Below, piece after piece: positions 26,116-33,839 of a stretch of 64,000 nt of DNA; the first letter of the stretch is position 1, and every line of letters begins with the position of its first letter. Origin of the DNA: an uncultured Chloroflexia bacterium (GTDB taxonomy: Bacteria; Chloroflexota; Chloroflexia; QHBQ01; JADMIH01); assembly GCA_963797095.1 (NCBI GenBank), contig CAWCNY010000008.1:64001-128000 (forward strand), written 5' to 3'. Made by a program: the position numbers and the translations under genes. The notes under the pieces are model-generated. The model was not told the origin of the DNA. It ran no database searches and saw only the letters and a list, made by a program, of their open reading frames with translations.

Positions 26116-28245
26116 GTGCGGTTTCGGTACAGTTCCGGTAGTATTCTTGGGAAACTGGCCCGGAAAGGGGCGGTTTGGATGGGTCGGAGGCATACTCGCT
26201 CGGACGAATTGCACGCTGCGCAGGCCGAAAGATTCGCAGCGCTTCTGGCGGATCTGCTCTACCAGGTCGGCCTCACCCACAAGGAAGTCGCCCAGATGCT
26301 CGGAGTGCCGGTTGGCACGGTTGATTCTTGGACTCGCGGCTCAGATCCCAAAATCCCGTCCGAGACCAACTTGTCGGCGCTGTGTGTCATGCTCAACGAG
26401 CACAAGCCCGGCGCTGGGGTGGAACTTGCCAGCGCCGCGGGCCGTTCCTGGTCGCCCCCTAACCCCGCCCCTAACTCAGCCATTGAAACCGGTCATGAAG
26501 TCCCAACAGAACCTCTCGCTGCTGACGTAACCACAACCTCGCTCGAAGCCAGGGCGGCCTCGGATACGGTCAATCTCTCGCCTATTCAGAGCGCCGTCGT
26601 GAGGGCAAAGCAGGAGGGCAAGACGTTTCTTGCGCCCGCAGCCCTCGTGATGGTCCTGTTGGCACTGTTGGCTGGTGGAGCTATTCTGATGCAGAGCCGC
26701 AACTCGAGCCCTGGCGGAGACCCAACCACCACGCCCAGTGTCAATCCAACGCCTCCATCCGAAGGCGTACAACTGGGAGATCGCCTGTTGGCAGAGCGCA
26801 AGCCCGATCAGGCGTTGAGCGCATATGAGCTGGTGCTGGCCAGCGAATCAAGCAATGCCCAGGCGCTGCTGGGCAAGGGGCGGGCGTTAACCGACTTGGA
26901 ACGGTACGGAGAAGCCGTTGGGGCGCTGACTGACGCATTGGCCGCAAAGCCAGGCGATTTCCAGACTTTACTGGCTCGCGCTCATGTTTATCTCAGGATG
27001 AAATACTGGGGTTACGCCCGTGATGATGCCAACCGGGCGCTTGAACTGGACGAGGCTTCGCTGGACGCTTTGCTGGCAAGGGGACACGCCGCTGCCGGAA
27101 GTAACGCGTGGGCGGAGGCGCTTGCAGACTACGATGCCGCGTTGAAGACTCACTCCAACGACCCCTCTGTTTACCTGGATCGTGGGGAAGCGTACCTGGA
27201 ACACGGGGATGCTGCACAGGCAACCGCCGACTTCAATAAAGCTTTGTCGCTAAATCCCGGGCCCTCGCGCGCATTGGTCGCCCTGGGCCGCACCTACCTC
27301 ACGGGCGATCTGATTCAGCCCAACAGGGCGCTCGAATACTTTAGCCAGGCCATTGAAGCCGAACCAGATAGCAGCGATGCATATTACTGGAGGGGCTACA
27401 CTTACATGGATCAAATAGGGGTGCCTGCAAGCGCACGTGATGACCTTACAAAGGCCATCGACATCGGCCCGGCCAATTCACGACTATACCATGCGCGTGC
27501 TAAAAGTGAGGAGTTGTTGGACGACAGAGAAGCACAACTTGCCGACCTGGACCGGGCGGTGGCTCTCGATCCCAGAAATCCGCAGGTCTACCATTGGAGA
27601 TACGAGTATTCCTACTGGAACCGAGATTACACTCATGCACTCAGCGACCTAAACACCGAGTTGGGAAGCGACAGAAATAACCCGCTGCTACATATCTACA
27701 GGAGCGAGTTGTACCTTCTGCTCGAGAACCCGGTCCAGGCCGAGGTCGACGCACGCCAGGCCGTGGTTCTAGGCCATGAATATGCTCTCACTTATGTCGC
27801 CCTGGCTCAGGCGCTGTCCATACAGCAGAAATACACAGATGCTCTTGCCGAGGCCAACCGGGCTGTGCGCGCCAGCGATCCAGACAACCACGTTGCCGCT
27901 CTTGCCGCAAGAGGATGGGTTGAATTGAAAATGGGGCAGATTAGCCAGGCCACCGCCGATTTTGAGGAGGCGCTCAAGTCCGATGGCTTCAACAGGATAG
28001 CGCTCTTCGGTCGTGCCAGCATCTCTATTGACAACAACCAGTTTGAATCCGCTCTGAATGATATCGAACTCGGTATAAACCAGTATGATCGCTACGGCCT
28101 TGGCTATTTGTTGCGCGCCCGCGTGGCGATGGCCCAGGATAAGCCCGACAAAGCTCGTGCGGATCTATCAGAGGCCCAAGACCGAATCCTGTATCCAGAC
28201 GAGTCTTCTCAGGTCAAAGCGTTACTGGGAGAACTCAATCCTTAG
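26116..28245 (+). CDS. XRE-type HTH + single TM + long TPR protein
   Basis: 'GLTHKEVAQMLGVPVGTVDSWTRG', TM 'ALVMVLLALLAGGAILM', many TPRs. True start may be ATG 26179. Confidence 0.85.
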   Translation: MRFRYSSGSILGKLARKGAVWMGRRHTRSDELHAAQAERFAALLADLLYQVGLTHKEVAQMLGVPVGTVDSWTRGSDPKIPSETNLSALCVMLNEHKPGAGVELASAAGRSWSPPNPAPNSAIETGHEVPTEPLAADVTTTSLEARAASDTVNLSPIQSAVVRAKQEGKTFLAPAALVMVLLALLAGGAILMQSRNSSPGGDPTTTPSVNPTPPSEGVQLGDRLLAERKPDQALSAYELVLASESSNAQALLGKGRALTDLERYGEAVGALTDALAAKPGDFQTLLARAHVYLRMKYWGYARDDANRALELDEASLDALLARGHAAAGSNAWAEALADYDAALKTHSNDPSVYLDRGEAYLEHGDAAQATADFNKALSLNPGPSRALVALGRTYLTGDLIQPNRALEYFSQAIEAEPDSSDAYYWRGYTYMDQIGVPASARDDLTKAIDIGPANSRLYHARAKSEELLDDREAQLADLDRAVALDPRNPQVYHWRYEYSYWNRDYTHALSDLNTELGSDRNNPLLHIYRSELYLLLENPVQAEVDARQAVVLGHEYALTYVALAQALSIQQKYTDALAEANRAVRASDPDNHVAALAARGWVELKMGQISQATADFEEALKSDGFNRIALFGRASISIDNNQFESALNDIELGINQYDRYGLGYLLRARVAMAQDKPDKARADLSEAQDRILYPDESSQVKALLGELNP

Positions 28246-28263
28246 GCATCCATGCCATCAGGC

Positions 28264-28359
28264 TCATAGTAGGAGCAATATCATGGTGCAAGTAAACTCG
28301 TAAGCGCCAATGTCGTAGGCCTTGCCACGTGGCCTGGGCACTCCCTTATAGTCCAACCG
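28264..28359 (-). pseudogene. orphan choice-of-anchor Q C-terminal fragment
   Basis: Translates 'LDYKGVPRPRGKAYDIGAYEF', matching the C-terminus of 21688-24273. Confidence 0.7.
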
Positions 28360-28532
28360 ACTTCGATTTGCTTGTTACTTCCAGAGCCTCCAAGATAGAA
28401 ACCGTGATCTATATGGGTAATGGTTTGCCAAAACATTCATGATCGCGTAAGCGGTCAGAGTAAGCCATGGCCCTACAGGCCACCATTACCGATGAAAATG
28501 GATATACTGGTTCAAGGAGGTTGCCAAGGCTA

Positions 28533-28670
28533 AAGGTCGGCCCCAACCTGGTGCCCCGAGCCTGTTTCAGAGTATGACCTGGGTATCTTCAGGCACCATT
28601 GTCTGTCGCTCCTTCTTGAGTTCTTGAGAAGGAAGCACGTAGAGGAGAATCTTCGCATAATGGATACCCG
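28533..28670 (+). ncRNA. putative IS110 bridge RNA 1
   Basis: Stems AGGTC/GACCT and GGTATC/GATACC. Variable loops match the element's own flank and end. TATACT at 28503. Confidence 0.7.
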
Positions 28671-28730
28671 CTTGGCCTACCTCCTGTCTCCGCCTGTCTG
28701 CTGATTACGCGAAAGGAGGTACAGGCAGCA

Positions 28731-29954
28731 ATGAACATACTTTATGAGCGATGCTGTGGGTTGGATGTTCACAAGAAGAGTGTGGTGGCTTGCTTACTCA
28801 CCCCACAGGGCAAGCAGGTAAGGACGTTCGGCACCATGACTGGCGATATCCTTCAGATGGCAGACTGGCTCCAGCAAGAAGGGTGTACTCATGTGGCGAT
28901 GGAATCGACCGGCGTCTATTGGAAACCGATCTACAACCTATTGGAGGGGGAGTTTGAACTGCTCTTGGTCAATGCCCAGCACATCAAAGCAGTGCTTGGT
29001 CGCAAGACCGATGTACGCGATTGTGAGTGGATCGCCGACTTGCTCAGACACGGCCTGCTGAGAGGCAGTTTCGTACCTGATCGCCCCCAACGGGAGTTAA
29101 GGGAACTAACACGATACCGCACGCAATTGATAAGAGAACGCTCTACTGAGGTCGACCGGTTGCAGAAGACGTTGGAGGGAGCCAATATCAAGCTGGCAAG
29201 TGTTGCCACCGACATCATGGGAGTATCGGGGAGGCAGATCCTTTCGGCGTTGCTGGACGGACAGGTCGATGAGCGAGCGATGGCAGAACTTGCCAGGGGG
29301 CGGATGAGGGAGAAGATACCCCAACTGCAAGAGGCACTCCGAGGATGCTTTGGTGCCCATCAACGCTTCATGCTAGCTCACCAGTTAGCCTTGATCGACG
29401 TGCTAGACGCATCGATTGAGGGGTTGAGCCGCGAGATAGAAGAGAGGGTGAGCCCTTTTCAGTTGGCGTTGGACTTGTTGGTGACGATCAGGGGAGTGGG
29501 GCAGCGCACAGCGGAGGTGATCGTCTCTGAGGTAGGAGTTGATATGAGCCGATTTCCCACATCTCGGCATCTGGCCTCGTGGGCAGGGATGTGTCCTGGC
29601 AACAACGAGAGTGCAGGTAAACGCAAGAGCGGTAGGACCCGTAAAGCTAATCCGTGGCTGAGAACGGCATTAGTGGAGGCCGCTCAAGCAGCTGCTCACT
29701 GCAAACAGAGTTACCTGTCAGCACAATACCACCGGATAGCCAGGCGTGGAGGTGCCAACAAAGCTGCAGTAGCTGTAGGTCATACTATTCTCGTTATTGC
29801 TTATGAGATGCTGACGCATCAAACCACCTACAATGAGTTGGGAGGAAACTACTTCCATGAGCGAGACCGCAAGGCCAAAGAGCGGCGTCTGATCCATAGC
29901 CTGGAGCGACTTGGATACAAGGTTTCACTTGAGCCGGTTGCTTCGGCTGCATGA
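28731..29954 (+). CDS. IS110 family transposase/recombinase
   Basis: DEDD motifs GLDVHK, MESTG, KTDVRD; C-terminal 'ESAGK'. Confidence 0.97.
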   Translation: MNILYERCCGLDVHKKSVVACLLTPQGKQVRTFGTMTGDILQMADWLQQEGCTHVAMESTGVYWKPIYNLLEGEFELLLVNAQHIKAVLGRKTDVRDCEWIADLLRHGLLRGSFVPDRPQRELRELTRYRTQLIRERSTEVDRLQKTLEGANIKLASVATDIMGVSGRQILSALLDGQVDERAMAELARGRMREKIPQLQEALRGCFGAHQRFMLAHQLALIDVLDASIEGLSREIEERVSPFQLALDLLVTIRGVGQRTAEVIVSEVGVDMSRFPTSRHLASWAGMCPGNNESAGKRKSGRTRKANPWLRTALVEAAQAAAHCKQSYLSAQYHRIARRGGANKAAVAVGHTILVIAYEMLTHQTTYNELGGNYFHERDRKAKERRLIHSLERLGYKVSLEPVASAA

Positions 29955-30078
29955 ATTCCAGTTATTTTCAGAGGAGAGGAGTTTGTCATGTCGCTGGGGA
30001 CACCAGCGTATGAATGAAAATGGTTGAGCCACCCCTTGACCATGTGCTATGCTACTCGTTAGGCACTCTGAGCGCAAC

Positions 30079-30252
30079 AAGGTCGGGCTTGGTCTGGTGC
30101 TGCGAGCCCGTAAGAGCAGTTTGACCTGGGTGTCCCGAGGCACCACGTATTGTTGCTCCCATGCCTGTCCAGGCATCACCACTGTTGTGGGTCGGTGATT
30201 GGGTTGGGGATGGGAAGCACGCACAGCAGAATCTGTGATCAGGTGGACACCT
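30079..30252 (+). ncRNA. putative IS110 bridge RNA 2
   Basis: Same scaffold as RNA 1 with compensatory GGTGTC/GACACC. Confidence 0.7.
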
Positions 30253-30296
30253 CGCTCAGTGTCATGGTAAGTGTCATTTGTCTTAGCAATCTGAAC

Positions 30297-30354
30297 GAAC
30301 GCGAACGCGAACGCGAACGCGAACGCGAACGCGAACGCGAACGCGAACGCGAAC
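30297..30354. repeat. (GAACGC)9 microsatellite
   Basis: Nine perfect hexamers between RNA 2 and the transposase RBS. Confidence 0.95.
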
Positions 30355-30375
30355 AGGGCATAGGAGGTGGCTACG

Positions 30376-31644
30376 ATGCAAGTGGTTTATGAGAGATGCT
30401 GCGGGTTGGACATTCACAAGAGGACAGTAGTGGCTTGTATAATCTTGCCAGGAACGCTGGGACCCACCGGCCAACCCACCGGCCAACCCACCAAGGAAGT
30501 CAAGAGCTTTGGCACCATGACCGATGATCTGCTCCACCTGTCCGACTGGCTCCTCTCCCATCGAGTGACCCATGTGGCCATGGAGTCGACAGGGGTCTTT
30601 TGGAAACCCATTTACAACCTGTTGGAAGGGCAGTTCGAGCTTTTGTTGGTCAACCCCCAACACATCAAGGCGGTGCCTGGTCGCAAGACTGACGTGCGAG
30701 ACTGTGAGTGGATTGCCGATCTTTTGCGTCACGGGCTGTTGGCTGGGAGTTTTGTGCCTGACCAGGGACAGCGAGAGCTTCGGGAATTGACGCGCTACCG
30801 CACCCAGTTGATAAGGGAGCGTGCTTCTGAGGTCAACCGACTGCAGAAGACGTTGGAGGGGGCCAACATCAAGCTGGCAAGTGTCGCTACTGACATTACG
30901 GGAGTATCGGGGCGTCAGATACTGCAAGCTTTGTTGGAGGGGCAGAGCGATGAGCGAGCAATGGCCGAGCTTGCCAGGGGGCGCATGAGGGAGAAGATAC
31001 CGCAGTTGGAGGCGGCTCTCAAAGGGAGGTTCAGAGCACATCAGCGCTTTATGGTAGCCCAGCAGTTGGCCCACATAGACTTCCTGGACGAGGCCATTGA
31101 GAAGGTGAACATAGAGATAGAGGCAAGAATGGCCCCTTTTGGGTGGGCGCTGGACCTGTTGGAGACGATCCGGGGAGTGGGCCAGCGCACGGCTGAGGTG
31201 ATCATCGCAGAGATAGGGGTTGATATGGAGCGTTTCCCCACCTCCCGCCATTTGGCATCGTGGGCTGGGATGTGTCCTGGGAACCATGAGAGTGCGGGTA
31301 AGCGTAAGAGTGGCAAGACACGTAAAGGCAATGTGTGGTTGCGAACGGCGTTGGTGGAGGCCGCTCAAGCGGCGGGGCGGTGCAAAGGGAGCAAGGAGAG
31401 CTACTTGTCTGCTCAGTATCGGAGGATAGCCCGCAGTGGTGGGTCCAACAAAGCGGCGGTGGCTGTGGGCCACTCTATTCTGGTAATTGCCTATGAGATG
31501 TTGAAGCATCAAACCACCTACAACGATTTAGGTAATGGTTACTTTGATGAGCGAGACCGGCAAGCAAAAGAGCGGCGGCTGATACATAGTTTGGAGAAGC
31601 TGGGATACAGGGTCTCTCTTGAGCCTCTCCCTTCAGCTGCCTGA
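30376..31644 (+). CDS. IS110 family transposase/recombinase
   Basis: AGGAGG RBS; GLDIHK, MESTG, KTDVRD, ESAGK. Confidence 0.97.
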   Translation: MQVVYERCCGLDIHKRTVVACIILPGTLGPTGQPTGQPTKEVKSFGTMTDDLLHLSDWLLSHRVTHVAMESTGVFWKPIYNLLEGQFELLLVNPQHIKAVPGRKTDVRDCEWIADLLRHGLLAGSFVPDQGQRELRELTRYRTQLIRERASEVNRLQKTLEGANIKLASVATDITGVSGRQILQALLEGQSDERAMAELARGRMREKIPQLEAALKGRFRAHQRFMVAQQLAHIDFLDEAIEKVNIEIEARMAPFGWALDLLETIRGVGQRTAEVIIAEIGVDMERFPTSRHLASWAGMCPGNHESAGKRKSGKTRKGNVWLRTALVEAAQAAGRCKGSKESYLSAQYRRIARSGGSNKAAVAVGHSILVIAYEMLKHQTTYNDLGNGYFDERDRQAKERRLIHSLEKLGYRVSLEPLPSAA

Positions 31645-31833
31645 TCCTGAGTTATTTTCACAGCAGCAGAGCAGAGCAGAGCAGAGCAGTTGAGGTGGAG
31701 CAATTTCCACGATATGCTTGGGGCATGACGGGGCAGACCCTTGAAGAGGAAGTAATCGCATTACGGGCAGAGGTAGCCAGCCTCGACTGACCTGATTTTC
31801 AAATGCCAACCTCATTTCTGACACTACCCGGGA

Positions 31834-32711
31834 GCTATTCTTGTACCTGGCCATTCAGGAGTCTCCCTGACAGGCCCTCAAGGCTCTTTGGTATGTTGGA
31901 GATTGGTGATGGCATTGCGCGAGCTAATATAGCCGCAGTCTCGCCTCTTGCTGCCTCAGTGTCCATCATGAATGCGCTATGCTATCGCTACATCTGTGAG
32001 TAGGCCATACGCATTGGCTGTCTCAATGTATGGATAGAGTGCAGAGTCGACGCCCACATCGGTAAAGGTCGGTATCTCAGGCTTGACAAGCTCCCACCCC
32101 GCTGCCTGCACGACCACTTTCACGATAGAGCCGCGTGTGATCCCTTGCTCCGGCTTGAAGGTGCCGTCCTTGTATCCTATCACCAGGCCCTTCTGGTAGG
32201 CGGCTTCGACGTAGGGGCAGTACGGTGAGCCGGGCGGTACGTCGCTGAAGTGCGACACTTTGCCAGCTTCGAGTGATATGTTGAAGGCTTGTACGAGCAT
32301 TTTCAAAGCCGACCCACGGGCCATGCTCGCGTCGGGCTTGAAGAGCGTACCCGGAGCGGAGTGAAGGCAAGCATCTTCGTACCCGGAAACTATCCCAAGT
32401 GCCTCGAGAGACATGACCTCGTTATAGAACTTATTATCGGGCTGCATGTCTGGAAAGGAGGCGGGGCAGGCAGGCGTCACCGGGCATCGAGCCATCGAAG
32501 GTGAGACGGCGCCATCAAGGCAGGAGTTAGTCAGCATGGCGAAGTAAGCCTGCAAGCTCTGCGTTGCTAGCGTGAACTGGTAGCAGAAGTCGCCCTGCAT
32601 CAGGTTCCCGGTTGGAATGTCATTGTGCTTGCCAGGCAGGAATGCGCTCTCGTCCAATTCCGCGCCCAAGTAGCGCGCGTGAGGATCGCTGATCACTTGA
32701 TGTGGGTCCAA
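31834..32711 (-). pseudogene. S-layer homology (SLH) domain protein, truncated by IS982 and frameshifted
   Basis: 'GIVSGY', 'FSDVPPGSPY', 'GYKDGTFKPEQGITRG'. The last SLH continues in another frame ('AARGETAAILARA'). Confidence 0.75.
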
Positions 32712-32720
32712 TTTACTATT

Positions 32721-33839
32721 AGGCCATTATGCTAGATGAGGGAAGGCAAGCTCCTTGATATTGAGGAACTCGGCCTTACCCAACAAACGATTGATATAGA
32801 TGCACAAGGTATGAGCAGCCAATTTGGAGTACAAACGGGTACACAAACCCCAGAATGTGTGAGCATGGTTTTGCTGCACCGAGAATTGCTCGGCCAATTG
32901 GCCGTTCACTGTCTCGATTATCTGTCTCGTCCGACAGATGCACTCGGACACTGCTTCAGGGAGTTGCCTTTTCTGGTTGGCTCTAGGCACGGTCATCAAG
33001 CAGATACGGTTGCCCTCCAAAAGAGCATCGGCAACAGGCTCAGACAACAGGCTCAGACAACAGCCTCAGACAACAGGCTCAGACAACAGGCTCAGACAAC
33101 AGGCTCAGACAACAGCCTCAGACAACAGGCTCAGACAACAGCCTCAGATATGCACCCTTTGTCAGCCACAGCATGAAGGTCTGTGTGCTCCTCAAGCAAT
33201 TCATAGCCGCCTTGCAGGTCGCCTATGTTGGCAGGCATAAGGGCAGATCACTCCTCCCAACGTGACGAGCAGTTGCATCTTGTAGCCGAAGAAGGTCTGC
33301 TTCTTGGAAGCGACCCTGCCAAAGGTAGCTCCGTTAGCAGTCCAATCTCTAGAGGCCCCAGGAGCCAGGTGAAACTGCACCACCGGCACCGGCAACGAGT
33401 TTACGAGTTTATGCAGCATTGCCTATCCTCAGCAATATCAAGTGCTCGCAGGACCACCTGCCTGACCAGGTTGAAAGCATGCCAAAGCCCTCTTCTGCGC
33501 CTGTTGAAGCGGCTTTGCGAAGGGATGTGAGGGAACAAGTCACGATGTCGGTGCCACTCCGAAACGAGGGTCAACTCCGTATCCCATCCTTTGCACTCTC
33601 CAACCAGGCACATCGTCATCAACTCCTGGTCGGAGCGTTGGAGGATGGCCCTGGTCGAGGGAACAGATGGCTAACTTGTCTGTAAGTATCTTCCACGATG
33701 CAATACATCCACAAGCTAAAATCGTCGAAGTTGGTTATCACCGGGTATCCTCCGTGTTTGGGCAGGGTTGGTCTTGTAGCCGCTTCCTTACCAAACCGGA
33801 GGTTTCATTGTCAACCGTTTCTATCTAGCATAATGGCCT
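32721..33839 (-). mobile_element. IS982-family element, transposase pseudogene
   Basis: 17-bp perfect TIR AGGCCATTATGCTAGAT (32721-32737 / 33823-33839). 'ITNFDDF.LWMY', 'SQSRFNRRRR', 'FFGYKMQL', 'RQIIETVNGQL'. Confidence 0.9.
33032..33148. repeat. 13-bp tandem repeat x9 inside IS982
   Basis: CAACAG(G/C)CTCAGA x9. Confidence 0.95.

Follow-up and report, generated by a model that had tools for sequence, protein, structure and literature searches.

The DNA analyzed here, a 64,000-nucleotide (nt) stretch of contig CAWCNY010000008.1 from an uncultured Chloroflexia bacterium (hereafter the window), carries two insertion sequences (ISs) of the IS110 family in tandem. Both lie on the plus strand and are called IS_A (28461-29974, 1514 nt) and IS_B (29982-31664, 1683 nt). 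We consider it very likely (probability of about 0.85) that they are two autonomous RNA-guided elements, each encoding a bridge RNA (seekRNA) in its long left end. This reading is based on the protein family, the element boundaries, the RNA helices, and the covariation between guides and DNA. By analogy with IS621, the putative RNA would be made, bound by the recombinase, and used to direct recombination. The locus is a natural case of two reprogrammed relatives, which share a scaffold and most of their protein sequence and differ in donor and target guides. The side-by-side pair, its paralogous unoccupied sites, and a second tandem in the same genome permit their comparison.

Recombinase genes and element boundaries

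The recombinase coding sequence (CDS) of IS_A (28731-29954, plus strand) specifies 407 amino acids (aa) and that of IS_B (30376-31644, plus strand) 422 aa. Both products match PF01548 (DEDD_Tnp_IS110; E = 9e-34 for IS_A and 4e-30 for IS_B) and PF02371 (Transposase_20; E = 5e-24 and 2e-24). They also match the NCBI model NF033542, named "IS110 family RNA-guided transposase", at 290 bits (IS_A) and 294 bits (IS_B) with a cut-off of 140. These matches bear out the two tandem IS110 elements proposed by a first-pass annotation of the window. The two recombinases are 77% identical to each other and remote from the 328-aa IS621 recombinase (phmmer E = 3e-12). Its alignment with them nevertheless covers the acidic motifs GxD, E(S/A)TG, and KTD..D as well as the serine motif ES(A/G). 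When plasmids were searched by tblastn, only generic "IS110 family" names were returned, and the proteins could not be placed in the IS110 or IS1111 subgroup in this way.

Homologous loci were collected to define the ends of the elements. A scan of genome contigs matched 587 stretches, 533 of which encode a relative; the best 80 of these 533 were kept (53-69% identity; mostly Chloroflexota, other metagenome-assembled genomes [MAGs] from soil and sediment, and Alicyclobacillus). Together with six loci from the source genome, 86 loci were inspected, and 26 of them were dropped (no resolvable anchor, open reading frame [ORF], or contig end). L053, which has a divergent right end, and A2, a chimera, were left out before counting. 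Permutation tests cover 38 distinct elements with 58 insertions, and since these homologues are kin, the permutation figures given below overstate independence; mutual information and identity were tabulated for 40 elements.

The boundary rule is independent of the RNA: a right end is TTTTC plus 5 nt plus the core, and a left end is marked by the core, 4-6 nt, and CATG. Family right ends read ATTTTC, five variable nt, and a 2-nt core, with TTTTC invariant at -12 to -8 of all 58 right ends. Left ends begin directly after the same core, 4-6 nt ahead of the CATG that opens a palindrome. In 60 of the 86 loci, equal cores (AG mostly, AA or AC in some) stand on both sides with no longer duplication. 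Moreover, the flanks of multi-copy families within single genomes diverge exactly at the boundaries set by the rule.

Under this rule, IS_A consists of a 270-nt left end (28461-28730), the CDS, and a right end reaching 29974, between AG cores at 28459-28460 and 29975-29976. IS_B has a 394-nt left end (29982-30375) and a right end reaching 31664, with AG cores at 29980-29981 and 31665-31666. Only 20 nt separate the stop codon from the element end in both. A truncated, independent IS_B-type copy in contig C2 of the genome has the identical right end, TTTTCACAGC plus AG, followed by unrelated flanking sequence. The predicted circle or tandem junctions would read TTTTCAGAGG-AG-TAAGCC for IS_A and TTTTCACAGC-AG-TTTGTC for IS_B.

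A predicted covarying RNA in the left ends

A leader scaffold common to IS_A and IS_B, as described by the first-pass annotation, is visible in their pairwise alignment. Structure was scored on an alignment of 38 distinct leaders, in which a model of five helices pairs 91.6% of cells and shows changes on both sides in 21 of 29 pairs. The number of double-changed cells is 145, in contrast to 39.4 after shuffling (none of 500 shuffles was as high) and 25-40 in slid controls. The leaders thus carry a covarying structured RNA, as had been claimed. Since P2, P3, and P4 contain invariant G-U pairs, the RNA is assigned to the plus strand.

The predicted bridge-RNA core of IS_A spans 28534-28669 on the plus strand. 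P1 (28534-38/28576-80; AGGUC/GACCU) encloses the target loop, within which P2 (28549-54/28560-64) forms a small covarying hairpin, UGG-GC/GC-CYG, that includes TGGTGC. The long-range helix (28581-87/28663-69) has 7 bp, and all seven pairs covary. It contains the compensatory pair noted at the outset, GGTATC/GATACC versus GGTGTC/GACACC, and all seven of its pairs are changed on both sides. P3 (28591-93/28650-52) is AGG/UCU, and P4 (28604-13/28630-39) is the hairpin GCUCC...GGAAGC, lengthened by UGU/ACG. In IS_B, the predicted core lies at 30080-30252 on the plus strand, with the long helix at 30128-34/30246-52. Folds of single sequences recover the long helix and P4. An Rfam search of 27000-33000 returned just two chance-level matches (E = 0.3 and 0.49), both within coding sequences.

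A pseudoknot had also been suggested from the TGGTGC/GCACCA complementarity, and this proposal is not supported. The pairing TGGTGCC/GGCACCA is formed in 76.7% of cells, shows no double changes, and is equaled or bettered in 488 of 500 shuffles; its bases belong to P2 and P3, both of which covary, and to the donor loop.

Guide windows follow the ends and flanks of each element

Single 7- to 8-mers recur by chance in 64 kb, and the register of the proposed guides was therefore tested on the homologues. The seven nt following GGAAGCACG-N form a left donor guide (LDG), which equals 5 nt of the right end plus the core, with an identity per position of 0.93-1.0 at the seven positions (40 elements). 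Across the 38 elements, an average of 4.87 of the 5 variable LDG positions agree with the right end of the same element, versus 2.14 after permutation (0/5000 permutations as high). In IS_A, the LDG (28641-28647, plus strand; AGAGG + AG) is identical to 29970-29976. In IS_B, it lies at 30223-30229 (plus strand), and the slightly longer window CACAGCAG at 30222-30229 is identical to 31659-31666. Both of these matches had been seen in the initial inspection.

The left target guide (LTG) comprises the 8-9 nt ahead of the 3' strand of P1 and equals the left flank plus the core. Over 38 elements and 58 insertions, it agrees with the left flank at 4.11 of 6 positions, compared with 1.67 after permutation (0/5000). 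The agreement extends beyond the core: the 2 nt that follow match the first 2 nt of the element at 1.92 of 2 positions versus 0.81 (0/5000 permutations), and the control against the right flank gives 0.82 against 0.55. The LTG of IS_A (28565-28574, plus strand) is TTTCAGAG, then UA copying the first 2 nt of the element; that of IS_B is 30111-30119 plus UUU (plus strand). At the locus itself, the LTG matches at 6/8 positions for IS_A and 6/7 for IS_B. The windows originally reported are also present at the stated positions: TCAGAGTA at 28567-28574 is identical to 28455-28462, and AGAGCAGTTTG at 30113-30123 agrees with AGAGGAGTTTG at 29975-29985 at 10 of 11 positions. They do track the left flank as claimed, with the correction that the match crosses the left junction, from the flank through the core into the element by 2-4 nt. 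The guide-end covariation first noticed in two elements also holds across the 38 distinct elements.

The guides of the opposite strand had been left unassigned, and one of them was found. The variable n7 segment of the scaffold described by the first-pass annotation ends in the complement of the core directly ahead of GGUGC, 5' of P2, and is read as a right target guide (RTG). It pairs with the core and right flank at 4.03 of 7 positions versus 2.90 after permutation (0/2000 permutations), for example in L047 (7/7), L066 (7/7), and C6b (6/7). The RTG of IS_A (28541-28549, plus strand) is CCCCAAC + CU and predicts the right target GTTGGGG; against the IS66 sequence TTGAGGT, it fits 3/7 by eye. 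The RTG of IS_B lies at 30087-30095 (plus strand). One weak signal, between the right-donor position RD+4 and a single long-helix column (complementarity 0.82, mutual information 0.59), was discarded as spurious, having no neighboring columns and misfitting IS_A.

Taken together, P1 would enclose a target loop made of a 7-nt antisense RTG, the hairpin P2, and an 8-9-nt sense LTG, which would run on for 2 nt copying the first bases of the element. The long-range helix and P3 would enclose a donor loop, whose 3' side would be the 7-nt sense LDG (the last 5 nt plus the core AG). IS_A and IS_B differ in all three guides, namely, in the LDG (AGAGG versus ACAGC), the LTG, and the RTG. The two may form an orthogonal pair, as the first-pass annotation proposed, but given how close the scaffolds and proteins are, the RNA or protein of one element may also be usable by the other.

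Insertion site and proposed order of insertion

IS_A has as its left target the outer portion of an IS66-family left terminal repeat (28447-28460, plus strand; GTAAGCGGTCAGAG). The IS66-family end continues at 31690-31800 (plus strand; TTGAGGTGGAGCAATTTCCAC...), on the right side of the interrupted site, and the tandem thus interrupts GTAAGCGGTCAGAG / TTGAGGTGGAGCAATTTCC. Eight other, uninterrupted repeat ends in the genome read GTAA(G/A)TGT(T/C)CAGA(C/G/T), directly followed by T(T)G(A/C/G)GGTGG. With these paralogues as empty sites, the empty-site comparison proposed at the start could be made. A full copy of the terminal-repeat element encodes a DDE_Tnp_IS66 protein (L120 109-1563). The copy in the window is only a fragment, whose short frame ends after 21 codons; at least eight other copies exist in the genome.

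IS_A would have inserted first, into the IS66-family terminal repeat, and IS_B (LTG AGAGCAG, fitting A-type right ends) would then have landed at the right end of IS_A. This order is proposed because the LTG of IS_A fits the IS66 flank (6/8 positions by eye) and the LTG of IS_B fits the right end of IS_A (6-7/9 by eye, as opposed to 2/9 at the IS66 flank). The landing of IS_B on a sibling end is supported by three further observations. The truncated copy in C2 follows ...ATCAGAGCAG, which the IS_B LTG matches at 7/7 positions. The donor guide (LDG) of A2-type elements, AGAGCAG, is identical to the IS_B target guide. Finally, the diverged elements L045 and L088, which have the same LTG as IS_B, lie directly behind another IS110-family recombinase gene and its right end. 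Candidate target sequences for IS_B would be TTTTCAGAGC-AG and TTTTCAGAGG-AG. More generally, TTC stands at -10 to -8 of the left flank, as in every right end, in 14 of 58 insertions (12 of 38 elements), and targets resemble right ends even where no element lies upstream, e.g., at L089 and L103.

Between the elements, the 5 nt AGGAG (29977-29981, plus strand) repeat the IS_A right end and core in tandem, and their last AG (29980-81) is the left core of IS_B. This junction is identical in the second tandem, and contigs of the soil DNA runs X1 and X2, possibly from the same sample as the assembly, span it with 0 differences. The contigs of four low-depth DNA runs contain no circle junction and no empty site; the other joints in them come from relatives less than 95% alike. 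In a soil contig of run X4, an approximately 95% relative of the IS_B left end (before 29980) is preceded by GTATTTTCAAAGT-AG. This joint, in which a right-end-like sequence is connected through one core, is the tandem or circle junction of a relative. Among the homologues, L086 follows TTTTTCAGAAG-AG-AAGAG and thus shows a 5-nt duplication like the one between IS_A and IS_B. L064/L067 and L094 are homotandems with one shared core, and L045 and L088 are heterotandems. In 25 genomes of the genus, the IS_B leader gave weak partial matches only, in 4 of them.

A second tandem and the 5-nt repeats

The genome contains a second tandem (G000 C5:605980-609340; L121). The segment 28960-31689 of the window equals it except for 2 substitutions and a 6-nt CAG indel (two extra CAG), and the 5' part differs. 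The left element of the C5 tandem is a chimera, combining an A2-type left end, RNA, and approximately the first 70 codons with the 3' part of IS_A from about 28960. In its IS_B copy, Leu replaces Ser in the MESTG motif. The second tandem would stem from a second insertion of IS_B beside an A2-type element, followed by gene conversion.

IS_B carries three perfect microsatellites. The first, (CGAACG) x 9.8 at 30296-30354 (plus strand), separates the RNA from the ribosome-binding site; in a contig of run X2, 25 nt are missing here, at 30295. The second is a 12-nt unit x 2.6 within the coding sequence (30462-30492, plus strand), which adds a PTGQ repeat to the protein. The third is a perfect (AGCAG) x 5 array (31665-31689, plus strand) that begins with the right core of IS_B. 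It is present in both IS_B copies, with two extra CAG in the other copy, and nowhere else in the genome. Because IS_B carries these three microsatellites and copy number varies between copies and in the metagenome contig, slippage after insertion is the most likely origin of the 5-nt repeats, one AGGAG and five AGCAG.

Points against the two-element reading and alternative explanations

Several results weigh against the interpretation of IS_A and IS_B as two RNA-guided elements with the history outlined above. The other opposite-strand guide, an antisense right donor guide (RDG) for the core and the first bases of the element, did not emerge: no run of complementary columns exists for RD+1 to RD+8 in 40 elements, and checks by eye were also negative. 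At the locus, the IS_A RTG reaches at best 3/7 at its own flank, and only with a 2-nt shift (1/7 in register by eye), and the IS_B RTG at best 5/7 at its own right target, only out of register. The stability of the single-sequence folds is not unusual (z = -1.3 and -0.7), and a simple sigma-70 scan of the locus found 0 sites. No orthologous empty site was obtained; the left flank was not found in the 40 relatives searched. In the second tandem, the left element has the LDG AGAGC beside the right end AGAGG, a mismatch. Finally, the AGCAG array is common to both IS_B copies to the last base, which slippage alone does not explain.

In one alternative, the tandem is a composite unit that would move as a whole, reaching from an A-type left end to the end of the AGCAG array, with the terminal AGAGC-AG read as the right end by an A2-type donor guide. 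The block common to both loci ends exactly at the last AGCAG, the array closes with the same 7 nt as the A2 LDG (AGAGCAG), and large expanded IS110 loci arising via half-matches are described in the abstract of a preprint (bioRxiv 10.64898/2026.08.14.744561). However, the left border of the shared block falls inside the recombinase gene (about 28960) and not at a left end, and the array end lacks the TTTTC found at every right end of the family. Moreover, IS_A is the left element in the window, and its LDG fits the IS_A right end rather than the array. A composite unit is therefore unlikely. We give still less credit to the idea that IS_B never targeted IS_A and that the tandem reflects duplication and divergence, or chance adjacency. 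Head-to-tail homotandems with a single shared core do exist (L064/L067, L094), but here the proteins are 77% identical while guides, left ends, and right ends differ. IS_B-type elements also insert independently after AGAGCAG, as in the C2 copy, and two other phyla-level MAG records contain heterotandems that share this LTG.

The least probable explanation, to which we attach hardly any weight, is that the leaders are ordinary 5' untranslated regulatory regions and that the matches reflect conservation of the end sequences. Small RNAs modulating recombinase expression have been proposed for an IS110-family member, as cited in Durrant 2024 (PMC11208160). Against plain regulation, the guide windows vary more than any other part of the leader and still track each element's own flank or end in 38 elements. 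The antisense window even tracks the right flank, outside the element, and the NCBIfam model carries the name of an RNA-guided transposase. The reading of two autonomous RNA-guided elements is thus preferred.

Subterminal features of the left end

The 5' side of the donor loop (CACC plus 6 nt; IS_A 28594-28603, CACCATTGTC; IS_B 30141-30150; both plus strand) resembles, in the same sense, a left-end segment just ahead of the conserved motif ATGAAAATGG. In IS_A, this subterminal segment lies at 28481-28491 (plus strand; CACCATTACCG). The longest common substring averages 6.67 nt, compared with 4.67 after permutation (0/3000 permutations). For neither the donor-loop 5' side nor its look-alike was a complementary partner found within the RNA, their own pairings being no better than permuted ones in six comparisons. 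There is also no wobble-direction bias that would indicate pairing of the donor-loop 5' side with the bottom strand (21 versus 17 transitions).

Between the recombination site and the copied segment lies a palindrome (IS_A 28468-28482, TGGCC-CTAC-AGGCCA; IS_B 29989-30004; plus strand). Among 40 distinct elements, 31 have a covarying palindrome that begins 6-7 nt inside the left end; there are 39 different sequences, and the mean perfect stem is 5.35 bp versus 3.46 bp after shuffling. The near-invariant left motif ATGAAAATGG contains the 7-bp reverse complement of the invariant right-end ATTTTCA. This forms a candidate subterminal inverted repeat in IS_A (TGAAAAT 28493-28499 / ATTTTCA 29964-29970) and IS_B (30015-30021 / 31654-31660), plus strand coordinates in both cases. 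ATGAAAATG and ATTTTC are both near-invariant among the homologues, and their reverse complementarity was read from the sequence. The motif is placed asymmetrically, 5 nt from the core at the right and 32 nt at the left. A conserved TAnnnT box after ATGAAAATGG was noticed by eye only.

Comparison with known bridge RNA and seekRNA systems

The elements resemble IS621 and its bridge RNA (Durrant 2024, PMC11208160) in many respects. They have a recombinase with DEDD and Tnp parts, a predicted RNA that the long left end encodes ahead of the gene, one target loop and one donor loop, 7-9-nt sense guides that include a 2-nt core, an antisense right target guide, and the core at both junctions. In contrast to IS621, the core is AG instead of CT, and the guide order is reversed: in the target loop, the antisense guide precedes the sense guide, and in the donor loop, the LDG occupies the 3' side. 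No counterpart of the antisense right donor guide of IS621 was found. In addition, the 2-nt "handshake", a copy of the first donor bases, adjoins the sense target guide, whereas the handshake positions of IS621 adjoin antisense guides (Hiraizumi 2024, PMC11208158).

Further parallels concern the seekRNAs described in Siddiquee 2024 (PMC11187229). As in the IS1111-type element ISEc11, the complement of the top strand comes first and the match to the bottom strand follows. The conserved inverted motif (ATTTTCA / TGAAAAT) near the two ends is a candidate parallel as well; the IS1111 group has subterminal inverted repeats of 7-17 bp, and the motif found here is 7 bp and asymmetrically placed. Unlike in the IS1111 group, the non-coding region is upstream and not downstream of the gene. 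The same source gives 395-455 aa for the subgroup containing IS110 and 330-350 aa for IS1111, and by these quoted lengths, on which the subgroup comparison rests, the proteins of 407 and 422 aa fall in the range of the former and not of IS1111. ISEc21, an IS110-type element with a seekRNA, has the IS621-like guide order, unlike IS_A and IS_B. According to that source, ISEc21, IS4321, and IS5075 home to an IS3-family transposase gene or to Tn21-family terminal repeats. This is similar to the present elements, whose proposed homing sites are likewise conserved sequences of other mobile elements: the terminal repeat of an IS66-family element for IS_A and a sibling's right end for IS_B.

Durrant 2024 and a 2026 preprint, the latter with 86 covariance models that cover 32,190 bridge RNAs, both state that many of these RNAs differ in structure from that of IS621. 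The present clade may already be catalogued among the published models, and the known principle of RNA guidance is unchanged by the locus. For bridge recombinase engineering, it adds a clade of long recombinases (407-422 aa) with an AG core and a guide order unlike that of IS621, together with a candidate extra donor contact and the probable natural homing of one element to the end of another.

A wider interpretation can be formulated, although we regard it as doubtful. The bridge RNA of this clade would be a mirror image of that of IS621 and read one donor strand, with IS_B-type elements programmed onto sibling right ends and thereby building heterotandems. The antisense target guide would come first, the sense target guide would carry the 2-nt handshake, and an antisense right donor guide would be absent. 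The 5' side of the donor loop would copy the 10-nt subterminal segment of the left end behind the palindrome, beside the 7-bp inverted repeat. Both strands of the donor loop would then pair with the bottom strand; such bottom-strand-only pairing, if true, is expected for a single-stranded circle donor. Register slips between overlapping AG...AG sites would leave the 5-nt AG-N3 arrays as a side effect.

Neighboring genes and other copies in the genome

Upstream of the tandem, the gene at 26116-28245 (plus strand) encodes a 709-aa protein with an N-terminal helix-turn-helix and many TPR repeats. Downstream, the gene at 31977-32711 (minus strand) encodes a 244-aa protein with an S-layer homology domain. 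Elsewhere in the genome, the IS_B-type copy in C2 (669316-670325, minus strand) is internally deleted, and a truncated A2-type copy lies at C5:63119-63740 (minus strand). A third type is represented by the intact copies C6a and C6b (C6:821277-822815 and 792481-794019, minus strand), which occupy different sites and have flanks that fit their guides; one further right end of this third type is found at C1:492579.

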